DNA of 44,179 nucleotides, taken from NCBI GenBank assembly GCA_032279465.1, contig GCA_032279465.1_4357.1, one strand, 5' to 3'. Position 1 is the first letter of the stretch. Each line of letters starts with the position of its first letter. Shown piece by piece: positions 2,334 to 36,219 of this stretch. Made by a program: the position numbers and the translations under genes. The notes below the pieces were generated by a model that was not told where the DNA came from, did not search any database, and saw only the letters and a program-made list of their open reading frames with translations. This DNA is from a phage.

Positions 2334-2364
2334 CTTCTGTCTCTCCTCTTGTTTGTGTAAATGA

Positions 2365-2394
2365 ATAGTAGCCTATTCTATCTTAGTGTGCAAG
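2365..2394 (-). promoter_or_regulatory. Sigma70-like promoter (type 1: TTGCAC-N18-TACTAT) with AATAG-N4-CTATT inverted repeat
   Basis: Minus-strand -35 TTGCAC (2389-2394), -10 TACTAT (2365-2370); inverted repeat 2364-2377; about 30 nt upstream of gene start 2333. Confidence 0.5.
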
Positions 2395-3437: not shown

Positions 3438-3471
3438 AACCCTCACTCCTCTGTCTCGTTTTGATAAGTGA

Positions 3472-3500
3472 ATAGTATCCTATTATGTTGGGGTGTGCAA
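3472..3500 (-). promoter_or_regulatory. Sigma70-like promoter (type 1: TTGCAC-N17-TACTAT) with AATAG-N4-CTATT inverted repeat
   Basis: Minus-strand -35 TTGCAC (3495-3500), 17-nt spacer, -10 TACTAT (3472-3477); inverted repeat 3471-3484. Confidence 0.55.
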
Positions 3501-3559
3501 GAGATTAGTTACGTTGCCGTTGTGATTCTTTCGTTTCTTAAAAGAGTACGCAACGCAGT

Positions 3560-3774
3560 GGGTGGGCGTTAGCCCACCCCAGCGGAGTGAAGTACTCTCT
3601 ATCTTGCTTACGGCAACTATAGAAACTTTTAATTATCAGTGACTTGGATATTTAGGCGGGATTAACAATAGACTTTGACCCTTCCGAAAGCGTCAGCGGA
3701 ACTACACTCAAGTGCCTAATGGCACGCGTTGCGTTCCCTGCCGCTCCGCGGTCGCTTGCGATATCTCACAAGCT
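3560..3774 (-). ncRNA. Structured leader RNA, copy A (putative antitermination/attenuator element)
   Basis: Non-coding; core 3665-3790 is a paralog of 35955-36078; predicted start near 3774 from promoter 3781-3809; 5' hairpin 3754-3773; covarying stem 3698-3702/3733-3737 enclosing hairpin 3712-3725; ends at GC hairpin 3560-3579. Confidence 0.45.
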
Positions 3775-3780
3775 CAGTGA

Positions 3781-3809
3781 AGCTTAGCATATTTTCAAGT
3801 AAAAGTCAA
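3781..3809 (-). promoter_or_regulatory. Promoter of leader RNA copy A (TTGACT-N17-TGcTAAGCT)
   Basis: Minus-strand -35 TTGACT (3804-3809), 17-nt spacer, extended -10 TGcTAAGCT (3781-3789); same architecture as 36069-36097. Confidence 0.5.
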
Positions 3810-3856
3810 TACCAGTAGCATCTTTTGTATTTTAGTAACTTTGCGTGGTGTTTTGG

Positions 3857-3885
3857 TTGCTTTTACATTCACGCTATCCTATACT
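3857..3885 (+). promoter_or_regulatory. Sigma70-like promoter for plus-strand early genes
   Basis: -35 TTGCTT (3857-3862), 17-nt spacer, -10 TATACT (3880-3885), about 30 nt upstream of ATG 3917. Confidence 0.45.
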
Positions 3886-3916
3886 CGTTTTCACCAAACA
3901 AACAGGAGATATAAAA

Positions 3917-4099
3917 ATGCAGCATTACATGACACAGAATGAAGTGGCTGAACGTATCGGGGTGACCCGTCAAACAATTAATAATTGGTTGCGCAGCGGT
4001 AAATTCCCTGATTGCTGTATTAAGGTTATGGGTCGCCGTTTACCAGGAACATTTGACCGTAATAAAGTTGAAGCATGGATTAAGGAGAACGTGAAATGA
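3917..4099 (+). CDS. Small HTH DNA-binding protein (AlpA/excisionase-like)
   Basis: ORF track 3845..4099; ATG 3917 behind AGGAG; helix-turn-helix segment NEVAERIGVTRQTINNWLRSGKFP. Confidence 0.6.
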   Translation: MQHYMTQNEVAERIGVTRQTINNWLRSGKFPDCCIKVMGRRLPGTFDRNKVEAWIKENVK

Positions 4100-4308
4100 T
4101 TGGGCGTATGGGTTGTTACTTTGAAAACTGTAAAGTTAAATACCGGTTTAAGTTTGCGCCGGAAATTACTGACAGCGGATTCTATGCGGAAATATGTAAG
4201 CCTAATCATTTGTTGGAACCGACACGCATTATTAAGATGCCAATCGAGGCTTTAAGTAAGTGTCGTTTCTACGCTTCGGAGCGTGCGTGGATTGCGGGCG
4301 TTAAGTAA
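4096..4308 (+). CDS. Hypothetical protein
   Basis: 70 aa ORF, ATGA overlap with upstream gene. Confidence 0.4.
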   Translation: MIGRMGCYFENCKVKYRFKFAPEITDSGFYAEICKPNHLLEPTRIIKMPIEALSKCRFYASERAWIAGVK

Positions 4309-4376
4309 AAGAAACCCCAACGCCAGAACGTCGGGGCTAAAGTACAAATCATCAAAGTAAGCATAAGGATTATACA

Positions 4377-4505
4377 ATGACAAAGTTAATAGTTCCACAG
4401 CTACGCCGCCAGAAACACGGCGCTGACTTCTTCGCACCGGTAAAGATGAACCGCGCAATGCGCCGTATGCAGGAAGCCTTAGAACGTGCGGAGAAAAAGA
4501 AATGA
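4377..4505 (+). CDS. Hypothetical small basic protein (42 aa)
   Basis: ATG 4377, stop overlaps primase start (ATGA); below ORF-track cutoff. Confidence 0.3.
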   Translation: MTKLIVPQLRRQKHGADFFAPVKMNRAMRRMQEALERAEKKK

Positions 4506-6754
4506 ATATTGTTTTTGCAACGCTGCGCAACACATTCGATAAAAACCCTGTAGCGCGTGAGATGCCTCTCGAGCAGTTTGTGGAGTATGTCTGCGATACA
4601 TCGAAGCGTTTATCCGTGGATCCGTCGTGGTCTAAGGAAGAGTACGACGCTGCCAAGATTAAGCAGAAAGCTATTGCGCCTGTTGGGGGTCGCCGTAAAA
4701 ACGCTATCCTGGAAGACAGTGTGGTTAAGTTCGATTTTGACCATCTCAACCGTACTCAGTACCGCGACCTTGCCCGCAAATTCAAGAACGCACCGTTCTT
4801 CAATATTCTGCATACAACGGCATCGCATCAGCATGTGTGTAAAAACGGTGATTACGCCTTCCGCGTTCTGGTTCCGGCTCGCACGCCGTTTAACTCTAAC
4901 GACGCGTGGATGGTCCAACGGGCTATTTGTGCAGAGTTAGAAATAGATGAAGCCTTGCGTGACCACTGCACGGAAGACGGCAACCGCCTTATCTATCTGC
5001 CACATAGAGAGTCAAAGATAACGGTTACAGAAGGGCGTGTTATCCGTGCCGAGCGGTACATCAAGAAAGCCGAAGAGATGGGGTTGAGTAAACGTGAAGT
5101 TAAGACACTTGCCGCCGATGAGTATGGGCTTAATGCTGATATAGCGCATTTCTGCGAAGCCGAGCTTGGCCTTGACGCTTTATCTTCCGGGCGCGGGTAC
5201 GAAGTCCCATGCCCTAACGAACATCTGCATACAGGCAAAGGCTCCACAAGCATCATGCTTGATGGTAAAGAAGTGCGCTTTGTGTGCCAGCATACAAACA
5301 ACGGCGCTTGCACCGAGCTTAACCGCCGACAGCATTTGGCCCTGCGTATGTGCGGCCTGCCAGACGAGCTTAACGTAGACAAGCAACCTATCAGTATTAA
5401 CAGCATTCGTGCGGCTCTGCCTGATTTACCGGATGAAGAGATTGAAGAACTGCACCGCACAGAGAACGAGGAGCCTGTAACTTGCACGCTGGAAGACCTT
5501 GAAGAAGAGGACGAGTTACCAGAACCGGTAAAGGCTGATTTCGTCGTTGAGGGGTACATGCCGTCGGATTGTATCTGGGATATTGTCGGGGAATCCGGCA
5601 CGTACAAATCATTCTATACGCTGGGGATGATGTACCTGAGCGCCGCCGGGTACCGGTTTGCGGGGGCTGACACCCAACGTTGCCACCATTTCTATATTGA
5701 CGGCGAGGGTGGTGCGACTACACGAACACGTATTGATGCACTCGCGGCTAAATATGGCGAGGAAGGTAAAGATTATGTACATGTCATCGATATGGGCGAA
5801 ATACTCGCTACGCATGGTGATAAAAAAATTCCAGCTCTAATCCGCAGGATGCGCGAAACCGCAGGGGATGAACCTATTGGCATGGTTGCCTTCGACACCC
5901 TTAACCAGACGCTGGCCCTGACGATTGATAAGTTCGACGAGAACAGTTCATCAACGGCAATCGGTATGGGTAAAGTTATCGCCATCCTGAAAGAAGTGCG
6001 CGATGCAACTAAAGCCGCTGTCGGTGTCGTTCACCATACTCCGAAGGGCGGAAAGAAAGCCCGCGGCAGTGGAGCATTGTATGCGGGTGTCGACGTGGAA
6101 CTTACAATCGAACGCGCTACCGGCCGTCAGATAAACGTATACCACTCTAAATTTAAGCACGGTCCGCAACAGAAGACGGTTGGCATGGTACTGGAGTCTG
6201 TACAGTTCCGTGAAGCACCGCCGCCGAAAGAGTACCGCGCGGTTGAGTTCCTCGGTAGCACAGAGGAATACGGCACAATAGTAAACCTCGACCTGCCTGA
6301 GCCGCACAAGGCGCTTGTATTGATGCCGTGGGGCTTCGAGCCATTCAAGACCGACGAGGAGAAAGAGAGGGAAGAAGGGTTAACTAACGAAGGTAAACAA
6401 AATGTACGTAAAACCATAGAGAACGCCGTCAACAGTTCCGAGGCCACGATACTCGCGGCGTTTGAACTGGCGGAGGGGACCTACAACGGCAACGAAGGCA
6501 TCACAGTCGCCGCGGCGAATAAGCTCGCACAGTCAGACCCCAACGCAAAGGCGTTTAACTCCAAAGAAGCCATAGAACGCGGGAAGATTAAGAAAATGGT
6601 TGAGGCTGGGTATCTTGTCCCGGGTACTGACGAAAACAATCAGATAATCCCAGGCCGTTACAGACTGAACACCATGATAACAGATAACAAGATTCCGAAG
6701 ACAATATACGAGCCGAATGAAATGCTGACAGTGACCGAGGAGGATTTGGAATGA
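4502..6754 (+). CDS. DNA primase/helicase (N-terminal primase-like and zinc-binding region, C-terminal RecA-like ATPase)
   Basis: 750 aa; Walker A GESGTYKS, ...VVHHTPKGGKKARGSGALYAGVDVELTIER typical of RepA/DnaB-like phage helicases; Cys/His cluster CPNEHLH...CQHTNNGAC. Confidence 0.65.
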   Translation: MNIVFATLRNTFDKNPVAREMPLEQFVEYVCDTSKRLSVDPSWSKEEYDAAKIKQKAIAPVGGRRKNAILEDSVVKFDFDHLNRTQYRDLARKFKNAPFFNILHTTASHQHVCKNGDYAFRVLVPARTPFNSNDAWMVQRAICAELEIDEALRDHCTEDGNRLIYLPHRESKITVTEGRVIRAERYIKKAEEMGLSKREVKTLAADEYGLNADIAHFCEAELGLDALSSGRGYEVPCPNEHLHTGKGSTSIMLDGKEVRFVCQHTNNGACTELNRRQHLALRMCGLPDELNVDKQPISINSIRAALPDLPDEEIEELHRTENEEPVTCTLEDLEEEDELPEPVKADFVVEGYMPSDCIWDIVGESGTYKSFYTLGMMYLSAAGYRFAGADTQRCHHFYIDGEGGATTRTRIDALAAKYGEEGKDYVHVIDMGEILATHGDKKIPALIRRMRETAGDEPIGMVAFDTLNQTLALTIDKFDENSSSTAIGMGKVIAILKEVRDATKAAVGVVHHTPKGGKKARGSGALYAGVDVELTIERATGRQINVYHSKFKHGPQQKTVGMVLESVQFREAPPPKEYRAVEFLGSTEEYGTIVNLDLPEPHKALVLMPWGFEPFKTDEEKEREEGLTNEGKQNVRKTIENAVNSSEATILAAFELAEGTYNGNEGITVAAANKLAQSDPNAKAFNSKEAIERGKIKKMVEAGYLVPGTDENNQIIPGRYRLNTMITDNKIPKTIYEPNEMLTVTEEDLE

Positions 6755-7065
6755 ATATTTACGATTTTATAGATAACCCGTTTAAAGCAGTGAAGGCAGG
6801 ATACCGCCCGTCATACCTGACATGTGTTTCCGCTGTAAGCAACAACTGGTGGACTTTTTGTGTGTATGCAGCGGGGATTTTTGCGGAGTTTAAAGACATT
6901 TTAGACATGACGCTGGCAGAGATTATAAAGTGCCTTTTCAAATTAATTATATCGATAACTATTGTTATAAGTTTTCCTGTAAGTGCGTGGTTTCTCGCCT
7001 GGATTCAGTACCTGAACGTGCAACACACTATTAAGAATTTGGAAGAACTCGATAAGTTGCTATAA
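6751..7065 (+). CDS. Hypothetical membrane protein (AT-rich, moron-like)
   Basis: 104 aa; hydrophobic helices; 3' half markedly AT-rich versus flanks; ATGA overlap with primase-helicase stop. Confidence 0.45.
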   Translation: MNIYDFIDNPFKAVKAGYRPSYLTCVSAVSNNWWTFCVYAAGIFAEFKDILDMTLAEIIKCLFKLIISITIVISFPVSAWFLAWIQYLNVQHTIKNLEELDKLL

Positions 7066-7089
7066 AAAGAAAGGGGCTTTAAGCCCCTT
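7061..7089 (-). terminator. Rho-independent terminator of XRE regulator gene
   Basis: Hairpin AAGGGGCTTT/AAGCCCCTT overlapping the stop codon, followed on minus strand by T-rich tract TCTTTTTTATA. Confidence 0.55.
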
Positions 7090-7294
7090 CACCTAACGCC
7101 AGCCACTTGGCGTCTACTTCCAGAACTTCCGCCAGTTTGAACAGCGTTGCCGGGCGGACGTCCTGAGTTACTCCAAGTGCCAGCTGGTTAATCGCGCCCT
7201 GGGAAACGCCGGTCAGGGCCGCCAAACGGCGCTGGGAGATGCCGAGTTCTTTACGGCGTTGTTCTACACGGGTGCCTAGTTCAGATGGTTGCAT
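7079..7294 (-). CDS. XRE-family (Cro/CI-like) HTH transcriptional regulator
   Basis: 71 aa; LGISQRRLAALTGVSQGAINQL helix-turn-helix; AAGGAG Shine-Dalgarno; lone minus-strand gene diverging from promoters carrying two inverted-repeat motifs. Confidence 0.7.
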   Translation of the reverse strand: MQPSELGTRVEQRRKELGISQRRLAALTGVSQGAINQLALGVTQDVRPATLFKLAEVLEVDAKWLALGEGA

Positions 7295-7314
7295 GTCAGT
7301 TACTCCTTAGTCAG

Positions 7315-7387
7315 TTGATATGTGAATAGTACCATATTAATTATTTTAGAAAAGCCCATTGACATGTGAATAGTTCGCTATTATAGT
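7315..7387 (+). promoter_or_regulatory. Tandem sigma70-like promoters (type 2) with two AATAG-N4-(C/A)TATT inverted repeats
   Basis: P1 TTGATA (7315-7320)-N17-TAATTA; P2 TTGACA (7359-7364)-N17-TATAGT (7382-7387); inverted repeats 7325-7338 and 7369-7382; divergent from XRE gene. Confidence 0.55.
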
Positions 7388-7415
7388 TAGCCCATACCAA
7401 ACGAGAGGGGCAGAT

Positions 7416-7643
7416 ATGAACACAATCACTGGGGCCATAGCTAAAGGTTTTCGAGCAATTTTCGGCGCTCCGCAAGAAGTGTGCACAAAACATAAATTTG
7501 TACTTTCTTGCGTAGTAGGGGATGAGTTTGATGGGTTCGATAAACTTGTTGTCTGTGACCATTGCGGGCAAGAAGCTATTCAACACTCAAACGGTAAATT
7601 TGAACTAATAGACGATAGCCTTACTGAAGGCGACGGTGAGTAA
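7416..7643 (+). CDS. Hypothetical protein with CxxC motif
   Basis: 75 aa; GAGAGGGG Shine-Dalgarno; VCDHCGQE. Confidence 0.4.
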   Translation: MNTITGAIAKGFRAIFGAPQEVCTKHKFVLSCVVGDEFDGFDKLVVCDHCGQEAIQHSNGKFELIDDSLTEGDGE

Positions 7644-7667
7644 CTTACACAAACAGGAGAGAAACAA

Positions 7668-8159
7668 ATGTTAGAGAAATTCTTAGTATTGCTGGAACGT
7701 TTCGTAGTTGCACATGAACTGATTGCCGCGAACAGTGCGAAACAAGTTGTTCAGGTTGCCGCGCCGCTGGAAGTAGAGACTGTATCGTACACCAAAGAAG
7801 CGGTAGCTGAGTGCGCTGAAGAAGCAACAAAAGAAATCCCGGTAGAAGGCGAAGACATCGTTGACACTAAACCGGCAGAAGAAGAGAAGCCGAAACGCAA
7901 GCCGCGTAAACCTAAAGTAGAGGAGTCTACGCCAGAACCGGAAGAAGAGGTCGATTACAAGTCTCTGCGTGACCAGATTCAGGCCATCGACGATGCAATT
8001 AATGAAGGTCCTAGCGATGCCGCGTGCGATGATTCTGATGAACTGCTGGAAGAGTTCACAGGTAAGAAAATGAAGATTGCAGCGATTAAAGACGAAGACC
8101 TGGCTGAATACCTGGAACGCTTGACAGCAATCAAGAACAAGTATTTCGAAGAAGAATAA
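7668..8159 (+). CDS. Highly acidic low-complexity early protein
   Basis: 163 aa; long Glu/Asp-rich tracts with a short basic patch KPKRKPRKPK; ACAGGAGAG Shine-Dalgarno. Confidence 0.5.
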   Translation: MLEKFLVLLERFVVAHELIAANSAKQVVQVAAPLEVETVSYTKEAVAECAEEATKEIPVEGEDIVDTKPAEEEKPKRKPRKPKVEESTPEPEEEVDYKSLRDQIQAIDDAINEGPSDAACDDSDELLEEFTGKKMKIAAIKDEDLAEYLERLTAIKNKYFEEE

Positions 8160-8202
8160 CTATCAGGCGGCCTTCGGGCCGCTTTAACGGAGGGGCGGAA
8201 AT

Positions 8203-8475
8203 ATGATTTACCAACTCTACCGCGCCGTAGACAGGCGGGATAACACAGAGGCGTTGTGGCTGTTGCGTGCGCCGTCCGGTGCGCACCAGATGGAAGAGAT
8301 GGCGTACTTAGGCAAAGTACCGCGTCCTAAAGATATAGGTCGTCACGTGTCGCGGATTAAACGCACGACATTCGCCAAGCCCGACTTTTATGTCTTCGAG
8401 TCGATGTATGGATGGGCCTTACATTGCGACCACAAGACACGGCATTTAATTGACCAGTGGGAGAACATAGCATGA
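8203..8475 (+). CDS. Hypothetical protein
   Basis: 90 aa ORF; stop overlaps next start (ATGA). Confidence 0.4.
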   Translation: MIYQLYRAVDRRDNTEALWLLRAPSGAHQMEEMAYLGKVPRPKDIGRHVSRIKRTTFAKPDFYVFESMYGWALHCDHKTRHLIDQWENIA

Positions 8476-9713
8476 TTCTAAAAGAACGCGGTGGCAATAA
8501 TGATGTGCACGCCCTGCTGTCGCCGTCGGGGGCTAAGAAATGGCTAAGTTGTGCAGCTTCGCTGGCCTGTGAGAAAGATATTCCTAACGCGTCTGGTAAA
8601 GCTGCGGTATTAGGCACAGCTATGCACACCATAGCGGAGATGCATCTAAACCAGTACATCAAAGGCACTGCGTTGCCATTAAAGCGTGAAGTCGGTGCTT
8701 ACGTACTGGATGAGGGTAAAGGCCAGATTAAGGCGCTAATCAGTCCGATGAAAGGCGCAGTACTGATTACGGCTGACATGATTGAGCAAGTGCGCAAGTA
8801 TACCGACTACTGCAAAGCGATTATCGATGTAGCGACTTACGCCAAGCTGGAAATGCGCGTCAATCTTACTGAGGTATTGCATCCGGGCTACGAAGGCGTT
8901 GAGACGTTCGGGACCGCCGACCTTGTTGCCGTTCAGGAACTGGCGAACACCGACGAGCATATGCTCGTAATCGGCGACCTGAAAACTGGGCGGCATCGCG
9001 TCGAAGCGAAAGAAAACAAGCAGCTTATGCTTTACGCTCTCGGTGTTTATCGTCGACTCAAGAGACGTTATAACATAACAACCGTTCGTCTGGTCATCTT
9101 CCAGCCTTACGCTGGGGGTGCGACAGAGTGGGACATCTCGGTTGAAGGACTGGAACTGTTCGCTAAGTTCGCACAGAAACGCGCGCTGTTAGCGCTTGAT
9201 GCGTATTTCCGTGGCAAGAAGAACCTGAAAGCGTCGGACTTCAAGCCATCGGTAGATGGTTGTCAGTGGTGCCGGTTCTCTGAACAATGCGCTGCGCGTA
9301 CAAAGACGGTTAATTCTGTACTGGCGGAAGAACTGGAAGACGACTTTGTGCTGGAACTGACACCAGAGCAACTCGTAGCTGAGTATGAGAAGTTGCCGTT
9401 GTTGCGCCAGCACATCGACAAGGTTGAAAAAGCTATGTCTGCCGCGTTGCATTCTGGTAAGAAAGTGCCTGGGTACAAGCTGGTTGAAGGCCGCGCGGGT
9501 AATCGTGCGTGGAAAGACACCGATGCGGTATTTGAGAAGTACGGTACTATGCTGCAAAAGGTAGTGCTCATGACGCCGACCGAAGCGGTTAAAGTCATAC
9601 CAGAAGAAGAACTGAAAGACTTCATTACCCGTAAGCCAGGCGCACCATGTGTTGCAACGGCAGACGACAAACGTCCTGAGTGGAATAGGGTAACAGAGGA
9701 GGATTTAGAATGA
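8472..9713 (+). CDS. PD-(D/E)xK exonuclease, Cas4/DUF2800-like
   Basis: ORF track 8457..9713, probable ATG 8472; N-terminal LLSPSGAKKWLSC, IGDLKTG...K core, C-terminal Cys cluster CQWCRFSEQCAA as in Cas4-like nucleases. Confidence 0.6.
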   Translation: MILKERGGNNDVHALLSPSGAKKWLSCAASLACEKDIPNASGKAAVLGTAMHTIAEMHLNQYIKGTALPLKREVGAYVLDEGKGQIKALISPMKGAVLITADMIEQVRKYTDYCKAIIDVATYAKLEMRVNLTEVLHPGYEGVETFGTADLVAVQELANTDEHMLVIGDLKTGRHRVEAKENKQLMLYALGVYRRLKRRYNITTVRLVIFQPYAGGATEWDISVEGLELFAKFAQKRALLALDAYFRGKKNLKASDFKPSVDGCQWCRFSEQCAARTKTVNSVLAEELEDDFVLELTPEQLVAEYEKLPLLRQHIDKVEKAMSAALHSGKKVPGYKLVEGRAGNRAWKDTDAVFEKYGTMLQKVVLMTPTEAVKVIPEEELKDFITRKPGAPCVATADDKRPEWNRVTEEDLE

Positions 9714-9913
9714 TTCAAGTAAATGAAATGCCCACAGATAAAGATTTTGTGATGATATGGCGCTGGGGCGGTTATATCCATTCGGAATCGTTTACGTTCC
9801 TGAACGGCACGATGGTGCGATACAACCATGTGGGGGATGAATTCGAACCCGTTGATATGAATGATTTCGAGAACATAGTCCGTATTGCGAAATTTTATTT
9901 GACACCTGAATAG
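9710..9913 (+). CDS. Hypothetical protein
   Basis: 67 aa ORF coupled to exonuclease. Confidence 0.35.
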   Translation: MIQVNEMPTDKDFVMIWRWGGYIHSESFTFLNGTMVRYNHVGDEFEPVDMNDFENIVRIAKFYLTPE

Positions 9914-9927
9914 TTAGCTATTATAGT
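9899..9927 (+). promoter_or_regulatory. Sigma70-like promoter (type 2: TTGACA-N17-TATAGT) with inverted repeat
   Basis: -35 TTGACA 9899-9904, -10 TATAGT 9922-9927, inverted repeat 9909-9922; followed by 5' UTR hairpin CCGGG/CCCGG near 9940-9955. Confidence 0.55.
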
Positions 9928-9995
9928 TCTAATCACTGGCCGGGCAGCTTCCCGGAGTAAACTTTGAAATATAAACTGAAAAGCGAGAAATCACG

Positions 9996-10622
9996 ATGGG
10001 TATTAAACTGAATCTGCGTAAAGTAAACACTGCATGGGTTAACGTATTTGAACGTGAAAAAGACCGTGAAAACGATGATGGCTCAATCACTAAAGGCCAG
10101 TACAGCGCGACTATCATCCTGCCGTCTGACCATGCTCAAATCGATGCACTCTACGACACCGTTTACGCTGTAGTTGAAGAAGCGTTAGGCGCAGCCGCGG
10201 CCGAGAAATGGATGAAGTCCAACTACGGTGAAGGTAAGCACATGGATAAATGCGCGATTAAAGACATTGCCGAGCGCGACAATCCGTTTGAAGACTTCCC
10301 GGAAGGCTTCTACTTCAAAGCGAAGGCACAGAAACAGCCGCTGATTGTAACCTCTAAAAAAGGTGAGACTCAGGTAGAGCAGGACTTCAACGTAGACGGC
10401 GAACAGATTGAAGGTGAACAGGTTTACAGCGGATGCTTAGCTAACGTAAGCGTTGAAATCTGGTTCAGCCAGAAATACAAAGTCCTCGGCGTTAACCTGC
10501 TGGCGATTAAATACGTTGGCGAAGGCAAAGCGTTCGGCAGTTCTAAAGTCGCTGCGAGCGTCAATGACCTGGAAGACGACGAAGAAGATGAAGCACCGCG
10601 CCGCGAACGTCGCCGCCGCTAA
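9996..10622 (+). CDS. Putative ssDNA-binding protein (T7 gp2.5/DUF2815-like)
   Basis: 208 aa; sits between Cas4-like nuclease and DNA polymerase as in DUF2800-DUF2815-PolA modules; acidic C-terminal tract DDEEDE. Confidence 0.45.
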   Translation: MGIKLNLRKVNTAWVNVFEREKDRENDDGSITKGQYSATIILPSDHAQIDALYDTVYAVVEEALGAAAAEKWMKSNYGEGKHMDKCAIKDIAERDNPFEDFPEGFYFKAKAQKQPLIVTSKKGETQVEQDFNVDGEQIEGEQVYSGCLANVSVEIWFSQKYKVLGVNLLAIKYVGEGKAFGSSKVAASVNDLEDDEEDEAPRRERRRR

Positions 10623-10642
10623 TATCTGAATCAATTTAACTA

Positions 10643-10667
10643 AGGCCCTTCATTGGGCCTTTTTACT
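10643..10667 (+). terminator. Rho-independent terminator
   Basis: Stem AGGCCC/GGGCCT with loop TTCATT followed by TTTTACT. Confidence 0.55.
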
Positions 10668-10681
10668 AAGGGTCGAAAATC

Positions 10682-10837
10682 ATGTTTTTCTGTAAGCACG
10701 TATACCGATATATGAAACCGCTTCCGTGGTACGCGGATGAGTACCGCGCCGGGTACAGGCATGTGTGGATTTGCCGTGATTGTATGAAAATAAGACTCAG
10801 CGAAACGAAGGCACTGGATTTAAGGAAAAAGAAATGA
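10682..10837 (+). CDS. Hypothetical small Cys-containing protein (51 aa)
   Basis: ATG 10682 behind AAGGG; stop overlaps DNA polymerase ATG (ATGA). Confidence 0.3.
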   Translation: MFFCKHVYRYMKPLPWYADEYRAGYRHVWICRDCMKIRLSETKALDLRKKK

Positions 10838-13014
10838 GCTACTTATACCTGGACTTTGAAACATTCTCCGAAGCCGATTTAAAGAAAGTCGGCTCCTACG
10901 CTTACGCCGAACACCCGACTACCGAAGTGCTTATCTGCACATATGCTTTTGACGACGAGCCTGTGCGGGTATGGGATTGCACCGATGGCAGCGACATGCC
11001 GGGTGATTTGCACCGCGCACTGCGCCGCCTGGTTAAGCCGAACAGTCGTATTAAGATGGTGTGGCACAACGGCTCAATGTTCGACAGGCTCATCATGAAA
11101 CACTGCTGGGACTTTGATATTCCGGTAAGTAACACCATTGATACTATGATTTGGGCGTTCCGTCACGCGCTGCCGGGTTCTCTTGATGCGCTGTGCGAAG
11201 TGCTGGGCGTGTCTGCAGACAACGCGAAAGATAAACGCGGCAAGGCTCTGATTAAGCGTTTCTCTAAACCGACGCCGAAGAACTACAAAATCCGCCGCTA
11301 CACCGCAGAAACTCACCCTGACGAGTGGGCGATGTTCATCAGGTACGCCGTGAGCGACATCACTGCGATGCGTGAAGTCTTCCATAAGCTGCCGCGTTGG
11401 GGTAACTCCGAGTTCGAAGACCGTGTACTGGAACTTGACCAGTTAATCAACGACCGCGGATTTAAGGTTGACGTCGCACTGGCGGAAGCCGCGATTGAAG
11501 CCGTAGAGAAGCACAAGGCACAGTTACAGGAAGAAGCTCAACGTAAATACGGCGGCTCGCTTACCGGTAAAGACTTCCTTCCGATTCTGCGTGAACTTGC
11601 GCCCGCGCACCGCATACACAATGCACAGAAGTCGACGCTTAACGACCTGTTGGCAGATGATGATTTACCGGACGACGCCCGGATGATTATCGAAATGCGC
11701 CTCGGGGCCGCGTCAACAGCGTCCACGAAATATAACCCGCTGCTGTTAGGCCGCTCGTCGGACGACCGACGCCGCGGTTGTATCCAGTACGGTGGGGCAA
11801 AGCGTACGTTACGGTTCGCGGGTAAAGGCTTCCAGCCACAGAACCTGGCGCGTGGGTACTATCACGATGATGAACTGGATAAAGGCATTTCAGCGTTACT
11901 TAAGGGCCGGGCGCACCGCCGATTTGACGTAGCCAAGCTGACGGCATCTACCGTTCGTAGCTGCATTATCCCGGAAGCCGGACATAAGTTTGTCATCGCC
12001 GATTACTCTAACGTCGAAGGCCGCGGTCTTGCGTGGCTGGCGGGCGAAGAAACCGCGCTAGATACGTTCCGCGCCGGACTGGATATTTACTGCGTAACAG
12101 CAGGTAAGATGTTCGGCATGGAGCCGGATTACATTAAGAAAGAACGTAAAGACTTACGCCAGATTGGTAAAGCCTGCGAATTGGGCCTCGGATACGCGGG
12201 CGGTGTCGGTGCTTTCGTTCAGTTCGCTAAAAACCTCGGCCTTGACCTGGTTGATATGGCTAAAACAATGGACGGTACTTTCCCTGACCACATCTGGGCC
12301 GCTACCGCGCGCGGGTACGAGTGGGCGCGTATTCAGGAAGCCAAGCGACCACCGCGTCCGGGTGAAAAGGATGACCGACCATCATATATTCTTGATAAGA
12401 AAGTCTGGCGTACATGCGACGCAATTAAGCGTATGTGGCGGGAGTCCCACCCGGAAACAGTAGCTTTCTGGCGTGATATTGAAGACGCAGCTATGGCAGC
12501 AATCCGTAATCCGGGGAAAGAGTTCACCGCTGGCCCTCGCGGGGTTAAGTTTTCTCGCAACGTAGAGACGGACAACAACGGCAACAAAGTCGCTGGTTGG
12601 TGGTTGCGCATGACGTTGCCGTCAGGTCGCGTTATGTCATACCCGGGCGTCGGGTTGAGCGTGTCAAAAGAGACAGACGAAGACGGAAAAGTTTCTACTA
12701 ACGTGCGCATCAAGTATCAGGGTGAAAATCAGTTAACCAGGCAGTGGGGCTTCCAGTACACCTACTCCGGTAAACTGGTGGAAAACTGCACTCAGGCACT
12801 GTGCCGTGACTTGCTGGCTAATGCGCTACTTAACGTTGAAGCAAACGGCTACCCGATTGTACTTCACGTACACGATGAGATTATCTGCGAGACACCAGAT
12901 TTACCAGAATACAATGTTGCAGAGCTTGAGCGATTGATGTGCGAATTACCAGAATGGGTGGAGGGGTTCCCTCTTGTAGCGGAAGGTCAGGAGTTAAAAC
13001 GCTATGCTAAGTAA
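10834..13014 (+). CDS. DNA polymerase, family A, with 3'-5' exonuclease domain
   Basis: ORF track 10780..13014, probable ATG 10834 behind AAGGAAA; exo motif LDFETFS; polymerase motifs DYSNVEGR, RQIGKACELGLGYAGG, HVHDEI. Confidence 0.85.
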   Translation: MSYLYLDFETFSEADLKKVGSYAYAEHPTTEVLICTYAFDDEPVRVWDCTDGSDMPGDLHRALRRLVKPNSRIKMVWHNGSMFDRLIMKHCWDFDIPVSNTIDTMIWAFRHALPGSLDALCEVLGVSADNAKDKRGKALIKRFSKPTPKNYKIRRYTAETHPDEWAMFIRYAVSDITAMREVFHKLPRWGNSEFEDRVLELDQLINDRGFKVDVALAEAAIEAVEKHKAQLQEEAQRKYGGSLTGKDFLPILRELAPAHRIHNAQKSTLNDLLADDDLPDDARMIIEMRLGAASTASTKYNPLLLGRSSDDRRRGCIQYGGAKRTLRFAGKGFQPQNLARGYYHDDELDKGISALLKGRAHRRFDVAKLTASTVRSCIIPEAGHKFVIADYSNVEGRGLAWLAGEETALDTFRAGLDIYCVTAGKMFGMEPDYIKKERKDLRQIGKACELGLGYAGGVGAFVQFAKNLGLDLVDMAKTMDGTFPDHIWAATARGYEWARIQEAKRPPRPGEKDDRPSYILDKKVWRTCDAIKRMWRESHPETVAFWRDIEDAAMAAIRNPGKEFTAGPRGVKFSRNVETDNNGNKVAGWWLRMTLPSGRVMSYPGVGLSVSKETDEDGKVSTNVRIKYQGENQLTRQWGFQYTYSGKLVENCTQALCRDLLANALLNVEANGYPIVLHVHDEIICETPDLPEYNVAELERLMCELPEWVEGFPLVAEGQELKRYAK

Positions 13015-13135
13015 ACTGATTATCGCGGTACTGGCGGGATTTGCCGCAGGTGTCTACTGTCACGAGGGTCAATACGGCATGATGGTTGCCATATTGGGCA
13101 TGTTCATCGCAATTTATCTGTGGGTGCTGGAATGA
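13004..13135 (+). CDS. Hypothetical small membrane protein (43 aa)
   Basis: ATG 13004 behind AGGAG, overlaps polymerase 3' end; hydrophobic. Confidence 0.3.
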   Translation: MLSKLIIAVLAGFAAGVYCHEGQYGMMVAILGMFIAIYLWVLE

Positions 13136-13217
13136 AAATTTACCGGTTCTACGAAGAAGACTGCCGAATCTGTCCGCGCTGCGGGATTGAGCATACGAAA
13201 CGTGAGGGGTGTGTATT

Positions 13218-13715
13218 ATGGCAGCACCAAGTGACGATATAAAAGATTTTCTGTCATACGACCCGGATACCGGGATATTTAAATGGGTCAAGCACAGATG
13301 CCAGACCGCGAAACCCGGAGATGTTGTTACATACAAGGACCGTAAAGGGTACATATTGTTAGGATGGAGTAGGGTGTATTACCGCGCACACAGGCTGGCG
13401 TGGTGGTGGGTGTACGGAGAGATGCCAACTAAGCAAATAGACCATATTAACGGCATACGGGACGATAACCGGATTTGTAACCTACGGCTTGCGGATGAAT
13501 TTCAACAGAACCATAACCGCAAGACCCCAGTTACGAACACCAGCGGCGTGAAAGGGATTAACTGGAGTAAGCCTCATAATGCTTGGTGTGCTCGAGTTGC
13601 TTTTAAAGGTACACGCTATCAGATTGGGTATTTCCAGAACCTAAATGAAGCAGAGGAATCCCTGAGAGAATTTAGGGCAAAACTGCACGGAGAGTTTTGC
13701 AACCATGGCGACTAA
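13218..13715 (+). CDS. HNH homing endonuclease with AP2 DNA-binding domain
   Basis: ORF track 13209..13715; IDHINGIRDDNRICNLRLA...QQNHN HNH motif followed by AP2-like GVKGINWSKPHNAWCARVAFKGTRYQIGYF. Confidence 0.65.
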   Translation: MAAPSDDIKDFLSYDPDTGIFKWVKHRCQTAKPGDVVTYKDRKGYILLGWSRVYYRAHRLAWWWVYGEMPTKQIDHINGIRDDNRICNLRLADEFQQNHNRKTPVTNTSGVKGINWSKPHNAWCARVAFKGTRYQIGYFQNLNEAEESLREFRAKLHGEFCNHGD

Positions 13716-13992
13716 AGAGGGCCGCGTACAGAAATACGCAAAAGAGCGATTCGAGGCCCTCGGGGGCCTCGTTCGTAAGTTGTCGTACGAAAATAGAGTG
13801 GGCGCTCCCGACCTGCTGGTAATTCTCCCCGGCGGCATCATCTGGTTCGTCGAGGTTAAGAAAGACGAAAACACGAAGCCAGACCCGCACCAGCTACGCG
13901 AGCACGAGCGGATGCGTAAACGCGGTGCAGATGTTTTTGTCGTCGGGTCGTTCAAACAGGTTGACGACCTAATAGCGAACTATTATAGTTAG
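13705..13992 (+). CDS. VRR-NUC domain nuclease
   Basis: 95 aa; PD-(D/E)xK signature GAPDLLVILPGGIIWFVEVKK. Confidence 0.7.
   Translation: MATKEGRVQKYAKERFEALGGLVRKLSYENRVGAPDLLVILPGGIIWFVEVKKDENTKPDPHQLREHERMRKRGADVFVVGSFKQVDDLIANYYS
13961..13989 (+). promoter_or_regulatory. Sigma70-like promoter (type 2: TTGACG-N17-TATAGT) with inverted repeat
   Basis: -35 13961-13966, -10 13984-13989, inverted repeat 13971-13984; lies inside 3' end of VRR-NUC gene. Confidence 0.5.
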
Positions 13993-14022
13993 CCCTACAC
14001 CAACAATATAAGGAATTGATAG

Positions 14023-14214
14023 ATGAAATACGAATATGACCGTAAACCAGCACGTGACATCGTACCTGGCGACATGATTTTCAACGTTAAGACCCGTCGT
14101 CCTGTTGCCGTTGATACGGTGTTCGTCGAGTCGAACGGTAAATTGGTTATTGAAGACGTAACTGGTAACGTTACTGCGTTCGGGCGTAAAGAGTTAGTTC
14201 TGGCGGCGAAATGA
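14023..14214 (+). CDS. Hypothetical protein
   Basis: 63 aa ORF; stop overlaps SNF2 helicase start. Confidence 0.4.
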   Translation: MKYEYDRKPARDIVPGDMIFNVKTRRPVAVDTVFVESNGKLVIEDVTGNVTAFGRKELVLAAK

Positions 14215-15635
14215 GTAAGTTTCAAAGGCGCGAATACCAGAAGCTCATGACTTCGTTCATGCTGCAGCATCCACGCTGTAATATCTGGTGCGGCATGGGA
14301 GGGGGTAAAACCTCCTCCACTATGTGGGTGCTAAACCGCCTGTTCCGCAACGGGCAGCTTACTGAAGATGACCGCGTGTTAATCCTCGCCCCCCTGCGTG
14401 TTGCGTCCGGCACATGGCCTGCTGAACAAACTAAGTGGGGTTTCCCGTGTCTGCGTGTCGTAGATGCTACCGGTTCAGAGAAGCGCCGCATCGCGGCGCT
14501 GGAGTCCGACGCTAACGTGGTGTGCACTAACTACGAAGTTATCGAGTGGCTAATTGACTACTACGGCAAAGACGACTGGCCTTTTACGGTTATCGTTGCC
14601 GATGAAAGCACGAAGCTTAAATCGTTCCGCAGCCGTTCGGGTGGTAGCAAGCGGGCAAAGGCGCTCAGCAAGGTTGCGTTCGGAAAGGTTAAGCGTTTCA
14701 TCAACCTGACAGGCACACCGTCACCAAACGGCCTCAAAGACTTGTGGGGTCAGAACTGGTTTATCGACGCTGGCGAGCGCCTCGGCTCTTCGTACACAGC
14801 ATTCACCGACCGCTGGTTTAACTCGGTACAGAAAGGTAAATCGGCTATGGCCCGCGAGTATCATGCACGACCGGGTGCGGATAATGAGATTCATCAGAAG
14901 ATGAAAGACATCAGCCTGACCATAGACCCTGCCGAGTGGTTTGGTTGTGAAGCGCCTGTTATCGTACCGGTGGAAATAGACCTGCCGAAGAAAGCGCGTC
15001 AGGCGTACATAGATATGGAGGAGAAGTTATTCGCAGAACTGGAGAGCGGGGAAGTTGAAGCGGCTAACGCTGCGGCGAAGACCTCAAAGTGCTTGCAGAT
15101 TGCATCTGGTGCCGTGTATGTGTCAGGGCCGGATGGTGAAGCGACCAAAGACTGGGGGAAAGTGCACGACACGAAACTGGATGCGCTCGAGTCGATTGTT
15201 GAGGAGTTGCAGGGTGCGCCGTTGCTGGTAGCCTATCAGTTTAAACACGAACTGGAGCGTATCCTTAAGCGATTCCCACAAGCACAGGCCTTTGCCAAAG
15301 GCGCCAGGGGTAATAAGCAGATGGAAGCATGGAACCGCGGGGAAATCGAAATCTTATGTGTCCACCCTGCGTCAGCCGGTCATGGTTTGAATTTACAGGA
15401 CGGCGGACATCATCTGGCATTCATCTCGCAAGGCTGGAACCTTGAGCACTATTTGCAGGTTGTCGAGCGCATAGGCCCAGTCCGCCAGAAACAGGCGGGT
15501 CACGAGCGCCCGGTGTTCCTTTATCACATCGTTGCTAAAGACACTCTGGACGAGGTTGTCGCCGCGCGTACCGACGAGAAGAAATCGGTACAGGAAGAGT
15601 TGCTTAATTACATGAAGAGACGAGGTAAGAAATGA
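14211..15635 (+). CDS. SNF2-family helicase
   Basis: 474 aa; Walker A GMGGGKT, DEST box, helicase C-terminal motifs. Confidence 0.75.
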   Translation: MSKFQRREYQKLMTSFMLQHPRCNIWCGMGGGKTSSTMWVLNRLFRNGQLTEDDRVLILAPLRVASGTWPAEQTKWGFPCLRVVDATGSEKRRIAALESDANVVCTNYEVIEWLIDYYGKDDWPFTVIVADESTKLKSFRSRSGGSKRAKALSKVAFGKVKRFINLTGTPSPNGLKDLWGQNWFIDAGERLGSSYTAFTDRWFNSVQKGKSAMAREYHARPGADNEIHQKMKDISLTIDPAEWFGCEAPVIVPVEIDLPKKARQAYIDMEEKLFAELESGEVEAANAAAKTSKCLQIASGAVYVSGPDGEATKDWGKVHDTKLDALESIVEELQGAPLLVAYQFKHELERILKRFPQAQAFAKGARGNKQMEAWNRGEIEILCVHPASAGHGLNLQDGGHHLAFISQGWNLEHYLQVVERIGPVRQKQAGHERPVFLYHIVAKDTLDEVVAARTDEKKSVQEELLNYMKRRGKK

Positions 15636-16075
15636 TGGATTTCGAAGAGTTTCTACTTAAAGCTCATCTGCTGGCGCGCGGGTTTGGCGCTGACCGTCTC
15701 CAGGTAGTCTTAGCCCCTGGAGTAGCTACGTTTTACCTGTGGAGGTTTGACGGTAGGCTTCGCGGATACCAGCATTACAAACCACATGCCGAAAAGAACT
15801 GTAAAAACCCTAAAGACGCGCGGTACTTTACCAGAACAACAAGGCCGTGTTTATGGGGGCTTGAGTATTTGCCGGAAAGCGGGGTGGTATTTGTTACCGA
15901 AAGCATATTCAAAGCCGTAGCCTTGATGAATTGCGGGTTCAATGCTGTAAGCGCACTGGGGTCAAATATATCAACAGACCTACGGCAGCAAATGTCACTT
16001 TTGCCGTATGACTGGGTGTGTGCTGGCGACAATGATAAAGCTGGATTAAAGTTCAGCAAAACATTCACCAGATGA
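15632..16075 (+). CDS. Toprim-domain protein (primase-like catalytic core)
   Basis: 147 aa; VFVTESIFKAVAL ... CAGDNDKAG Toprim Glu and DxD motifs; no zinc-binding domain. Confidence 0.55.
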   Translation: MMDFEEFLLKAHLLARGFGADRLQVVLAPGVATFYLWRFDGRLRGYQHYKPHAEKNCKNPKDARYFTRTTRPCLWGLEYLPESGVVFVTESIFKAVALMNCGFNAVSALGSNISTDLRQQMSLLPYDWVCAGDNDKAGLKFSKTFTR

Positions 16076-16283
16076 TTTGTATCTAACGACCTTGATGAAC
16101 TTTGTGAAGAAGAAATAACGTATCTTGCGAGGAAATTTACCAGACGAACATCATAGCCCCAATTCCGGCATTGCAAAAACGTATCAAGGAACTCGAAGAA
16201 GAGGTTCTGCGGCTACGTCAGCAAAGAGACTCTGCTAATGCGCAACTGGCGTTTGTACTGGAGAAGTTATCAGAAGAGTAGAG

Positions 16284-25814: not shown

Positions 25815-25843
25815 TTGCACACCCCAATATAATAGTGTACTAT
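25815..25843 (+). promoter_or_regulatory. Sigma70-like promoter (type 1: TTGCAC-N17-TACTAT) of plus-strand accessory island
   Basis: -35 25815-25820, -10 25838-25843, inverted repeat 25831-25844; about 40 nt upstream of ATG 25885. Confidence 0.55.
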
Positions 25844-25884
25844 TCACTTACACCGACGATGTTATCCCAAACAGGAGCTACACC

Positions 25885-26076
25885 ATGACGGGTATTACTA
25901 TGTTCTTCTTAATCATTATCGTTTTAGTTTATTTTATTCCATTTCTCGTGGCGCATATGCGCGACCATAAAGCGAAATTAGCGATATTCATGGCTAATCT
26001 GTTTCTTGGATGGGTTCTGCTGCCGTGGGTATTTATTTTAATCTGGGCTTGCAACTCGAATGTCAAAGAGAAGTGA
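25885..26076 (+). CDS. Superinfection immunity-like small membrane protein
   Basis: 63 aa; IPFLVAHMRDHKAKLAIFMANLFLGWVLLPWVFILIWA resembles Imm-superinfection family proteins (recalled from memory); ACAGGAG Shine-Dalgarno; AT-rich. Confidence 0.5.
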   Translation: MTGITMFFLIIIVLVYFIPFLVAHMRDHKAKLAIFMANLFLGWVLLPWVFILIWACNSNVKEK

Positions 26077-36163: not shown

Positions 36164-36192
36164 TTGCACACCCCAATATAATAGGGTACTAT
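36164..36192 (+). promoter_or_regulatory. Sigma70-like promoter (type 1: TTGCAC-N17-TACTAT) of 67-aa moron
   Basis: -35 36164-36169, -10 36187-36192, inverted repeat 36180-36193; AGGAGG Shine-Dalgarno then ATG 36220. Confidence 0.55.
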
Positions 36193-36219
36193 TCAGTTAA
36201 CTTAAACAGGAGGTGAAAA

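Follow-up and report, generated by a model that had tools for sequence, protein, structure and literature searches.

An optional membrane-protein gene and a conserved Cro-like regulator are neighbours rather than a pair in the replication module of a lytic Kagunavirus

In the replication module of a lytic E. coli phage belonging to Kagunavirus, a small gene for a hydrophobic protein (ORF104) converges on the gene of an XRE-type helix-turn-helix (HTH) regulator (XRE), which raises the question whether the two work together. A preliminary description of the same DNA stretch of 44 179 nucleotides (hereafter the window) had taken ORF104 for a moron-like exclusion or host-interaction protein of foreign origin, paired with a regulatory switch, and had left room for a toxin/immunity-like pair. 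Our analysis indicates that ORF104 is optional cargo and XRE the presumed core repressor of the subfamily, and that they are adjacent but no functional pair, because most relatives lack ORF104 while XRE spans the whole subfamily. The full explanation that we consider probable has ORF104 and XRE as independent back-to-back elements, with XRE a Cro-like repressor acting through a palindrome. Feature coordinates are collected in Table 1; Rfam and tRNA scans of the whole window returned no matches.

Table 1. Features of the ORF104–XRE locus and positions of the promoter-associated palindrome in the window
Feature	Position	Strand	Remarks
Palindrome	2364..2377		over -10 of leftward promoter TTGCAC-17-TACTAT (2393, minus strand)
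Promoter of helicase-primase operon, TTGATA-17-TATGTT	3461	+	
Palindrome	3471..3484		shared by two overlapping divergent promoters, 3461(+) and 3500(-)
Promoter TTGCAC-17-TACTAT	3500	-	divergent from 3461(+)
Replicative helicase-primase gene	4502..6754	+	phrog_3228 E=0; AAA_25 E 6e-21
Shine-Dalgarno GAGGAGG	6737..6743	+	7 nt 5' of ORF104 ATG; from sequence
ORF104	6751..7065	+	accessory single-pass membrane protein, phrog_2638 (PHROG without assigned function)
XRE intrinsic terminator	7062..7090	-	stem 7071-7079/7081-7089; U-tract 7062-7070
XRE, 434-Cro-like HTH regulator, 71 aa	7079..7294	-	HTH_3 E 3.9e-13; 434 Cro E 5e-6
Operator-like palindrome O2 (AATAGTACCATATT, 1 mismatch)	7325..7338		at predicted XRE promoter start site
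Candidate XRE promoter TTCACA-16-TAAAAT	7343..7370	-	consensus scan, 10/12
Rightward promoter P_R, TTGACA-17-TATAGT	7359..7387	+	11/12; drives 7416 onward
Operator-like palindrome O1 (AATAGTTCGCTATT)	7369..7382		in P_R spacer, 44 bp from O2
Second variable accessory ORF, 75 aa	7416..7643	+	phrog_32657; other flank of XRE core
Palindrome	9909..9922		in spacer of TTGACA-17-TATAGT, upstream of SSB and DNA polymerase genes
Palindrome	13971..13984		in spacer of TTGACG-17-TATAGT, upstream of second helicase and primase genes
Palindrome	25831..25844		over -10 of TTGCAC-17-TACTAT, upstream of Imm_superinfect gene
Palindrome	36180..36193		over -10 of TTGCAC-17-TACTAT, upstream of 36220-36420

XRE matched PF01381 (HTH_3) with 49.6 bits against a Pfam gathering threshold of 23. 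Its HTH spans residues 11–65 of a single-domain protein lacking a C-terminal oligomerisation or peptidase domain, and the closest solved structures were 434 Cro and 434 repressor, with XRE residues 6–68 aligning end to end with residues 4–64 of the 71-aa 434 Cro. No other minus-strand gene lies between 3917 and 16144, which confirms XRE as the lone one in the replication module, and the overlap of a terminator hairpin with its stop is confirmed too: the hairpin at 7071–7089 reads AAGGGGCTT-T-AAGCCCCTT and holds the stop codon (7079–7081) in its loop. The minus-strand RNA of this terminator folds at -17.3 kcal/mol (z -2.75), and the T-run is found on the minus strand only, the plus strand having no U-tract. 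The stop codon of ORF104 adjoins the terminator and is overlapped by its U-tract.

At its other end ORF104 is joined to the helicase-primase gene, with an ATG that overlaps the stop codon of the latter (ATGA). No promoter-like site was found 5' of ORF104, and the sole hairpin is that of XRE on the opposite strand. ORF104 would be translated by coupling, through the ATGA overlap and the GAGGAGG motif, as the final cistron of the helicase-primase operon, and would represent dispensable cargo in a variable slot that extends from the helicase-primase stop to the XRE terminator. Comparison with relatives agrees with such a slot. It is empty in K1ind3 and many other relatives (span ~441 bp), the helicase-primase stop directly adjoining the XRE terminator in K1ind3, K1H, fFiEco02 and others; in phiEc3/phiEc4-type phages it holds an unrelated 65-aa ORF of phrog_36357, which in phiEc4 uses the same Shine-Dalgarno junction, and in BEU33 another insert. 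The block conserved across Kagunavirus starts at 7063. Cassette carriers, defined by at least 80% query coverage, made up 12 of 100 Kagunavirus records, the rest having an empty slot or unrelated inserts. It is this presence/absence polymorphism, not composition, that supports ORF104 as an accessory, horizontally mobile membrane-protein gene.

The two genes differ widely in distribution. XRE was found in 489 phage records, all of them Kagunavirus, Jerseyvirus or other Guernseyvirinae (117 records with at least 90% identity, Kagunavirus; 372 below 60%, Jerseyvirus and others), and in every Guernseyvirinae genome examined. ORF104 was present in 14 phage records, and homologues without an adjacent XRE occur in Enterobacter phage Mulvp2 and in lambdoid-type contigs, there 3' of O/DnaB-like replication genes. 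A search of bacterial genomes yielded one true locus, at the end of a Pseudocitrobacter contig, and the ORF104 family is therefore, as far as these searches indicate, rare and phage-borne.

These numbers do not bear out the pairing of ORF104 with an XRE switch. A functional coupling in which XRE would turn an exclusion or host-interaction moron on and off is very unlikely and, judged by distribution, already largely refuted: 475 records have XRE without ORF104, the slot in relatives is empty or filled by other genes, ORF104 homologues exist without XRE, and ORF104 has no separate promoter on which XRE could act. The proposal draws on the arrangement of the genes, which are adjacent, convergent, 13 bp apart and have the terminator region in common, and on the accessory, membrane-bound nature of ORF104. 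It also draws on promoter 3461 of the ORF104 operon, which carries the palindrome, so that XRE may repress this operon along with everything else. A toxin/antitoxin or toxin/immunity system, with ORF104 as a membrane toxin neutralised or repressed by an XRE antitoxin, is highly improbable. Type II antitoxins commonly have an XRE fold, XRE gave weak sub-threshold matches to HipB, HigA and MqsA models, and small membrane proteins can be toxic; however, the genes converge on an intervening terminator instead of forming a co-directional, co-transcribed operon, they show no obligate co-occurrence, XRE being conserved where ORF104 is absent, translation of ORF104 is coupled to that of an essential replication gene, and ORF104 matched no toxin or defence family in Pfam, NCBIfam or PADLOC.

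The case for a foreign origin of ORF104 had been built on its AT-rich 3' half. Numerically this holds, with a GC of 0.365 in the 3' half and 0.391 in the whole gene against 0.512 in the helicase-primase gene, and the raw GC of ORF104 is the second lowest among 60 genes; the lowest belongs to Imm_superinfect (25885–26073), also a small membrane protein. The GC expected from amino-acid content and phage codon usage is 0.429 (3' half 0.401), which leaves a residual of -0.038 (z -1.4) after amino-acid correction, and GC3 is 0.462, alike in both halves, compared with 0.545 ± 0.068 genome-wide (z -1.2). The low GC is largely due to amino-acid content, residual and GC3 being unremarkable across the 60 genes. 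Compositional foreignness was set aside after amino-acid correction and comparison with all 60 genes: the deviation of ORF104 does not reach significance, a result that the preliminary description had itself taken to speak against its view.

ORF104 is evidently a real gene, since its family is conserved and dN/dS lies at 0.13–0.32. The 104-aa reading frame was confirmed, with one clear hydrophobic segment: the Kyte-Doolittle 19-residue mean exceeded 1.6 in windows centred on approximately residues 59–76, and hydropathy predicted a single transmembrane (TM) segment at approximately residues 58–88. A second TM segment at residues 23–45 was considered and discarded, its hydrophobicity being inconsistent across the family. 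The match to the phrog_2638 profile (E 6.9e-33, residues 1–98) was counted as full-length, and distant homologues match the same profile. Family members consist of a conserved N-terminal domain of ~57 aa (NIYDFIxxPxxAVxxGYxPSYLxCVS...DMTLxEI), one TM helix, in which a proline is invariant, and a short tail, and the AlphaFold2 model is all-helical (pLDDT 88). The mean net charge flanking the TM segment in 25 family members was -1.24 on the N-terminal flank and +1.28 in the C-terminal tail; hydropathy and the positive-inside rule, on which the topology is based, favour a predicted orientation with the N-terminus out and the C-terminus in. Pfam gave sub-threshold matches only (DUF4750, TatC), nothing matched in NCBIfam or PADLOC, a Foldseek search against BFVD found no match at E <= 0.001, and none of the cluster members carries a name.

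As to what ORF104 might do, the label moron is apt in part. Like genes of moron or accessory hot spots, it is a small gene (phrog_2638) inserted between conserved genes that are adjacent in relatives; among genomes that are otherwise nearly identical only a minority carry it, and it also turns up in unrelated phages. Unlike morons, it lacks a promoter and terminator of its own and depends on translational coupling to the essential gene 5' of it, its composition deviates without reaching significance and the phage carrying it is virulent, so the logic of a prophage-expressed fitness factor does not apply. The likeliest role, offered tentatively, is a non-essential envelope function, for example superinfection exclusion or another interaction with the host envelope. 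ORF104 would resemble the superinfection-exclusion proteins T4 Imm and Sp, P22 SieA and HK97 gp15 in being a small, early- or middle-expressed, dispensable inner-membrane protein whose conserved domain is probably turned towards the periplasm. It differs from T4 Imm and Sp, P22 SieA and HK97 gp15 in sharing no sequence or fold similarity with them, and no sequence or fold match was found to the characterised exclusion families Imm, Sp, SieA, Cor, Llp and gp15. The phage already encodes Imm_superinfect elsewhere, a point against an exclusion role.

Alternatively, ORF104 might serve replication from the membrane, for example as an anchor or modulator of the replisome comparable to phi29 p16.7. 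In each of four phage backgrounds it lies right beside a gene for a replicative helicase or primase: Kagunavirus, lambdoid-type contigs (where it follows O/DnaB-like genes), Jerseyvirus TS3 and Mulvp2 (where it converges on a DUF5906/VapE-like primase-helicase gene); here it is also translationally coupled to helicase-primase. Yet ~88% of Kagunavirus records do without it, lambdoid phages generally collect accessory genes behind their replication genes, ORF104 shows no DNA-binding motif, and the charge bias suggests that its conserved domain faces the periplasm. We regard such a role as doubtful.

The preliminary description was nearer the mark in placing a regulator at a switch, in that XRE sits in a switch-like divergent promoter region. 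Leftward transcription of XRE would start at a promoter of its own in the control region 7295–7415 and end at its own terminator. Across nine distinct Kagunavirus control regions the palindrome arms are invariant and the central N4 and the linker vary; O2 is invariant in these nine sequences, whereas O1 has invariant arms and varies only in its central N4. The candidate XRE promoter in relatives has an invariant -10 hexamer and a -35 that varies at its last two bases.

The palindrome, AATAG-N4-CTATT (14 bp), is not confined to this region. It occurs 10 times at no more than one mismatch against 1.19 expected, a count reached in none of 100 shuffles, and ranks first of all 5+5 palindromes, with seven exact copies compared with 0.04 expected. 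In eight of the ten best sigma-70-like promoter matches it lies within the spacer or -10 region; the remaining two comprise one with an imperfect palindrome over the -35 and one with none. Two promoter architectures are involved, and the register of the palindrome against the -10 differs between them. Related phages carry it as well: Jerseyvirus Ent3 has eight sites (1.1 expected), and Pantoea phage AH01 has AATAC-N4-GTATT instead, at 10 sites (1.4 expected), two of them in its XRE control region. No enriched palindrome of the AATAG or AATAC type was found in 37P2, TS33 and SE1, which keep an XRE homologue; either their operators have become too divergent to recognise or the palindrome is not bound by XRE. 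The recognisable DNA-binding proteins are XRE, HTH_17 and NinH, and XRE is the only one common to Kagunavirus, Jerseyvirus and AH01.

From these patterns we infer that XRE most likely represses the palindrome-bearing promoters, its own included. It would be a 434-Cro-like dimeric repressor, core to the whole subfamily, and AATAG-N4-CTATT is its most likely binding site; 434 Cro and 434 repressor bind 14-bp operators. O1, in the spacer of P_R, and O2, at the XRE start site, would serve autoregulation, and the other palindromes, in the spacer or -10 of the remaining strong sigma-70-type promoters, would bring in the replication, accessory and lysis operons. Bound XRE would keep RNA polymerase off these promoters and so reduce their activity, a shut-off of the Cro type in a phage that has no lysogeny module. 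The broadest form of this reading makes the lone XRE the master transcriptional regulator of a strictly virulent subfamily, a 'Cro without CI' with approximately nine operators in essentially every strong sigma-70-type promoter and a G-to-C half-site switch between Kagunavirus/Jerseyvirus and AH01, a switch that rests on three lineages; we put it at slightly short of even. No specific recognition-helix residues could be assigned to the switch among six sequences. The master-regulator reading counts two back-to-back promoter pairs, each with one shared operator.

There is a smaller but appreciable chance that XRE controls only itself and the neighbouring promoter, or has another role, and that the palindrome is bound by another phage or host factor or is intrinsic to the promoters. 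The palindrome overlaps -10-like hexamers, so part of its conservation could be promoter-intrinsic (TACTAT, TATTAT), three relatives bear XRE without an enriched palindrome, and the link between XRE and the palindrome is a prediction from sequence. On the other side stand the two registers in two architectures, arms that are conserved around a free centre, a half-site that switches as a unit in AH01, the presence of XRE in AH01 without HTH_17 and NinH, and the two palindromes in the control region of XRE itself.

The convergent arrangement might itself be regulatory, helicase-primase/ORF104 transcripts reading through the hairpin antisense to XRE and damping it as transcription of the replication genes rises. 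The terminator is unidirectional by sequence, the plus strand having no U-tract, and the arrangement is conserved in Kagunavirus and Jerseyvirus, where XRE is convergent with helicase-primase. In AH01, 37P2, TS33 and SE1, however, XRE is co-directional with helicase-primase, so convergence is no ancestral requirement, and we consider antisense damping unlikely.

The predicted repressor resembles 434 Cro and other lambdoid Cro proteins in being a small single-domain HTH protein, 434 Cro being its best solved-structure match, and lambdoid Cro in its divergent promoter region with two 14-bp palindromic sites and in its predicted repression of early promoters. Unlike lambdoid Cro, it belongs to a virulent phage family that, by the annotation of relatives, has no CI partner, integrase or lysogeny module (their full genomes carry no annotated integrase or CI), and its putative operators are spread over approximately nine promoters genome-wide, beyond one control region, with a sequence unrelated to ACAA-N6-TTGT. 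The gene divergent from XRE is a 75-aa ORF without an HTH, and the region is not a lambdoid CI/Cro switch. A further parallel is found in the controller (C) proteins of restriction-modification systems and other small autoregulated XRE regulators, likewise small XRE dimers with two adjacent palindromes upstream of their own gene, a site layout that suggests autoregulation and temporal control. The PADLOC 'control protein' model matched XRE only weakly and below threshold (E 0.012); unlike C proteins, XRE has no linked restriction-modification operon here.

A literature search found nothing mechanistic on XRE or the promoters of these phages. In an RNA-seq study of a Kagunavirus (PMC12645636), just four genes are listed as peaking early, one of them an HTH gene, and gene order suggests that this gene is XRE. 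If the XRE mRNA peaks early and the repressed genes peak later, a simple shut-off does not obviously explain the timing.

For annotation, ORF104 and XRE should not be treated as one module, and the 'repressor' often flagged in these therapeutic phages would be a core regulator of lytic development and no cargo-linked remnant of lysogeny. The slot that ends the helicase-primase operon appears to be a natural, well-tolerated insertion site for payloads. Kagunavirus and Jerseyvirus phages are widely isolated for phage therapy, are represented in the BASEL collection and are used as synthetic chassis. If the operator prediction holds, these phages would gain a defined promoter-operator-repressor set for engineering, and the prediction would help to explain the timing of gene expression in a virulent siphovirus. 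If true, the role of master regulator would give them a compact, portable one-protein circuit for the whole early and middle programme.

The window was assigned to Kagunavirus (Guernseyvirinae) based on the identity of the region to Escherichia phage vB_EcoM_SHAK7858 (96.5%) and to many K1G-like phages (88–94%), indicating a virulent siphovirus of E. coli. All genes between 3917 and 16144 lie on the plus strand except that of the XRE regulator (7079–7294), which is thus the sole minus-strand gene of the replication module, as reported in the preliminary description. The ORF at 6751–7065, encoding a 104-amino acid protein (ORF104), is a genuine gene. Its ATG overlaps the TGA of the helicase-primase gene (ATGA), with a Shine-Dalgarno sequence, GAGGAGG, 7 nt upstream, and the product matches the phrog_2638 profile (E 6.9e-33). 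The family is small, with 25 clusters when grouped at 90% identity and 30 representatives in a set of 1.84 billion proteins. It has a strongly conserved N-terminal motif, a hydrophobic segment containing an invariant proline and dN/dS of 0.13–0.32 against five relatives. Hydropathy analysis identified one transmembrane segment (approximately residues 58–88), in agreement with the hydrophobic protein described previously; hydrophobicity of residues 23–45 was inconsistent across the family. The AlphaFold2 model is all-helical (pLDDT 88), with a C-terminal helix of 49 residues. Across 25 homologs, net charge averages −1.24 N-terminal to the transmembrane segment and +1.28 in the C-tail, which favours an N-out/C-in topology with the conserved domain predicted on the periplasmic side. 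The homolog in PQ571288 is annotated as 'helix-turn-helix domain-containing protein', with no such motif detectable.

The AT-richness of ORF104 had been taken to suggest foreign origin. Its GC content of 0.391 is indeed the second lowest of 60 genes (mean 0.504, sd 0.044), but the amino-acid content, rich in I, F, L, K, N and Y, alone predicts 0.429 with the phage's own codon usage, leaving a residual of −0.038 (z −1.4), and GC3 is 0.462 in either half (0.545 ± 0.068; z −1.2). Several other small genes deviate more, for example that at 7416–7643 (GC3 0.347, z −2.9, the most deviant in the window). The compositional argument for foreign origin therefore fails on formal analysis of GC and codon usage. 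The only gene of lower GC (0.386, 25885–26073) likewise encodes a small membrane protein; it has one of the palindrome-bearing promoters described below and matches Imm_superinfect (PF14373, E 9.5e-14), so the phage already has a recognised exclusion-type protein.

ORF104 and the XRE regulator differ in distribution. Searches by tblastn identified XRE in 489 of 50,697 phage records, 117 at ≥90% identity (Kagunavirus) and 372 at <60% (Jerseyvirus and other Guernseyvirinae of Pantoea, Klebsiella, Hafnia, Serratia and others). ORF104 was present in 14: twelve of Kagunavirus, one of Jerseyvirus (TS3, where it likewise lies between the helicase-primase stop and the XRE terminator) and one of an unrelated Enterobacter phage, Mulvp2 (58.5 kb). 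Among 100 Kagunavirus records with a match to 6551–7300, only 12 carry the cassette (≥80% of the query covered). The slot is empty in, for example, K1H and fFiEco02 (span ~441 bp), and elsewhere holds an insert of ~196 bp, another insert (BEU33) or, at the same ATGA junction, an unrelated 65-amino acid ORF (phiEc4, phrog_36357). In many records the alignment does not start until query position 513 (window 7063), immediately past the ORF104 coding sequence, and in K1ind3 the terminator A-tract lies two bases beyond the TAG of helicase-primase. In Mulvp2 the homolog lies among small early genes, convergent on a DUF5906/VapE-like primase-helicase gene, with no XRE nearby. Distant homologs (28–34% identity) occur in lambdoid-type contigs among small nin-like genes, downstream of genes for replication protein O and DnaB-like or Toprim-helicases; a single locus was found in representative bacterial genomes. 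Some records are misannotated: XRE is unannotated in K1ind3 (GU196281), and OR594183, a Kagunavirus labelled Autographiviridae/Kayfunavirus, has a spurious opposite-strand ORF in place of the XRE CDS.

These distributions indicate that the two genes are not a pair, contrary to the pairing with a regulatory switch proposed earlier. A toxin–antitoxin or toxin/immunity reading is contradicted by gene orientation, missing co-occurrence and the lack of any match to toxin or defence families. In AH01 (Pantoea), 37P2 (Klebsiella), TS33 (Hafnia) and SE1 (Salmonella), XRE directly precedes helicase-primase, shares its strand and is divergent from the remaining replication genes. In Kagunavirus and Jerseyvirus, inversion has turned the helicase-primase module to face XRE; the convergence is thus a lineage-specific rearrangement rather than a designed pairing. 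ORF104 is optional cargo that occupies an insertion hot spot and is expressed as the final gene of the helicase-primase operon. With neither promoter nor terminator of its own, it is not a classical moron. The 75-amino acid Cys-rich ORF directly after the rightward promoter (phrog_32657) also varies, being absent in K1ind3 and replaced in EC3-1, so the XRE core has cargo slots on both flanks. The locus is an ordinary one, in which cargo adjoins a core regulator; the observations described previously were largely confirmed, the compositional and pairing inferences were not.

Features of the XRE control region, the palindrome-bearing promoters and the replication module
Feature	Position	Strand	Remarks
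Direct repeat, 25 nt	7315–7339 and 7359–7383		Control region 7295–7415
Palindrome AATAGTACCATATT	7325–7338		Control region of XRE
Palindrome AATAGTTCGCTATT	7369–7382		Spacer of rightward promoter
Rightward promoter TTGACA-17-TATAGT		+	Near-consensus; palindrome 7369–7382 in spacer
Candidate leftward promoter TTCACA-16-TAAAAT	7370 to 7343	−	
Type A promoters, TTGAYA-N4-palindrome then TATAGT	3461, 7359, 9899, 13961	+	
Type B promoters, TTGCAC-N10-palindrome	2393, 3500 (−); 25815, 36164 (+)	−/+	Palindrome overlaps −10 TACTAT
XRE hairpin AAGGGGCTT-T-AAGCCCCTT	7071–7089		XRE stop codon within loop
Module members	3917–16144		Include HTH_17 protein, helicase-primase, PD-(D/E)XK exonuclease, SSB, DNA polymerase A, second helicase, primase

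XRE matches HTH_3 (E 3.9e-13), and the nearest solved structures are 434 Cro, of equal length (71 amino acids), and the 434 repressor DNA-binding domain (E ~5e-6). The overlap of its terminator with its stop codon was borne out. TTTCTTTTTAT follows the hairpin only on the minus strand; on the plus strand the sequence downstream is CACCTAACG, so that, judged by sequence, the hairpin would terminate the helicase-primase/ORF104 transcript poorly. Terminator-type palindromes AAGGCC...GGCCTT occur elsewhere in five copies (10642, 16286, 28288, 33418, 38757), and also in Jerseyvirus Ent3 and AH01.

Each 25-nt repeat contains one copy of a 14-bp palindrome, AATAG-N4-CTATT (with one mismatch at 7325–7338), and XRE transcription from the candidate leftward promoter would start inside the first, at 7325–7338. 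Genome-wide, this is the most over-represented 5+5 palindrome of all (7 exact copies, 0.04 expected; 10 at ≤1 mismatch, 1.19 expected, reached in 0 of 100 shuffles). It occurs in eight of the ten best sigma-70-like promoter matches, in two registers. Downstream of these promoters lie replication, accessory and lysis genes, and no such promoter was found immediately before the structural operons. One copy (3471–3484) is common to the two overlapping divergent promoters at 3461–3500. Within 3461–3916, a stretch of ~430 nt, poor in ORFs and containing GC-rich hairpins, separates the rightward promoter from the HTH_17 gene; it has no Rfam match and could be an origin or regulatory leader. An imperfect copy, AATAGTCAACTAGT (44149–44162), overlaps the −35 (TTGACT) of a strong promoter-like site in a third register, and is kept between Kagunavirus and Jerseyvirus (40956–40969 in the latter).

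Across nine distinct Kagunavirus control regions both arms are invariant and variation is seen in the central N4 (TTCG, TTTG, TTCA, TTAG) and the linker to the −35, the pattern expected for the operator of a dimer. Ent3 has 8 sites (1.1 expected) at the same promoter positions. AH01 has AATAC-N4-GTATT instead (10 sites, 1.4 expected), embedded in promoters (for example, at 12009, 13345, 21793, 42398 and 45437 of that genome) and including two sites in its XRE control region, suggesting a lineage-specific specificity switch; 37P2, TS33 and SE1 retain XRE, yet neither palindrome is enriched. Of the recognisable DNA-binding proteins in the window (XRE, HTH_17 protein and NinH), only XRE has homologs in all three lineages, Kagunavirus, Jerseyvirus and AH01; the other two were rejected as binders, being absent from AH01.

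We propose that early transcription of XRE, from its own promoter, yields a Cro-like dimer. The dimer would bind palindromes located within the spacer or −10 region of those phage promoters that host RNA polymerase uses and thereby turn them down, the XRE promoter included. In RNA-seq of the Kagunavirus vB_Eco_K1B4, the HTH-domain gene _008, three genes past the AAA-domain helicase _005, is among only four early-peaking genes (PMC12645636); from gene order, _008 probably corresponds to XRE. Our literature search found no paper describing targets of this regulator. ORF104 would be translated with helicase-primase and inserted in the inner membrane, with a dispensable, envelope-related function, for which superinfection exclusion is the leading, if tentative, guess. 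The main rival is a replisome-associated protein, given its recurrence beside replicative helicase genes. A by-product of moderate interest is that, in this subfamily of virulent phages, a single protein is predicted to act on a network of operators.
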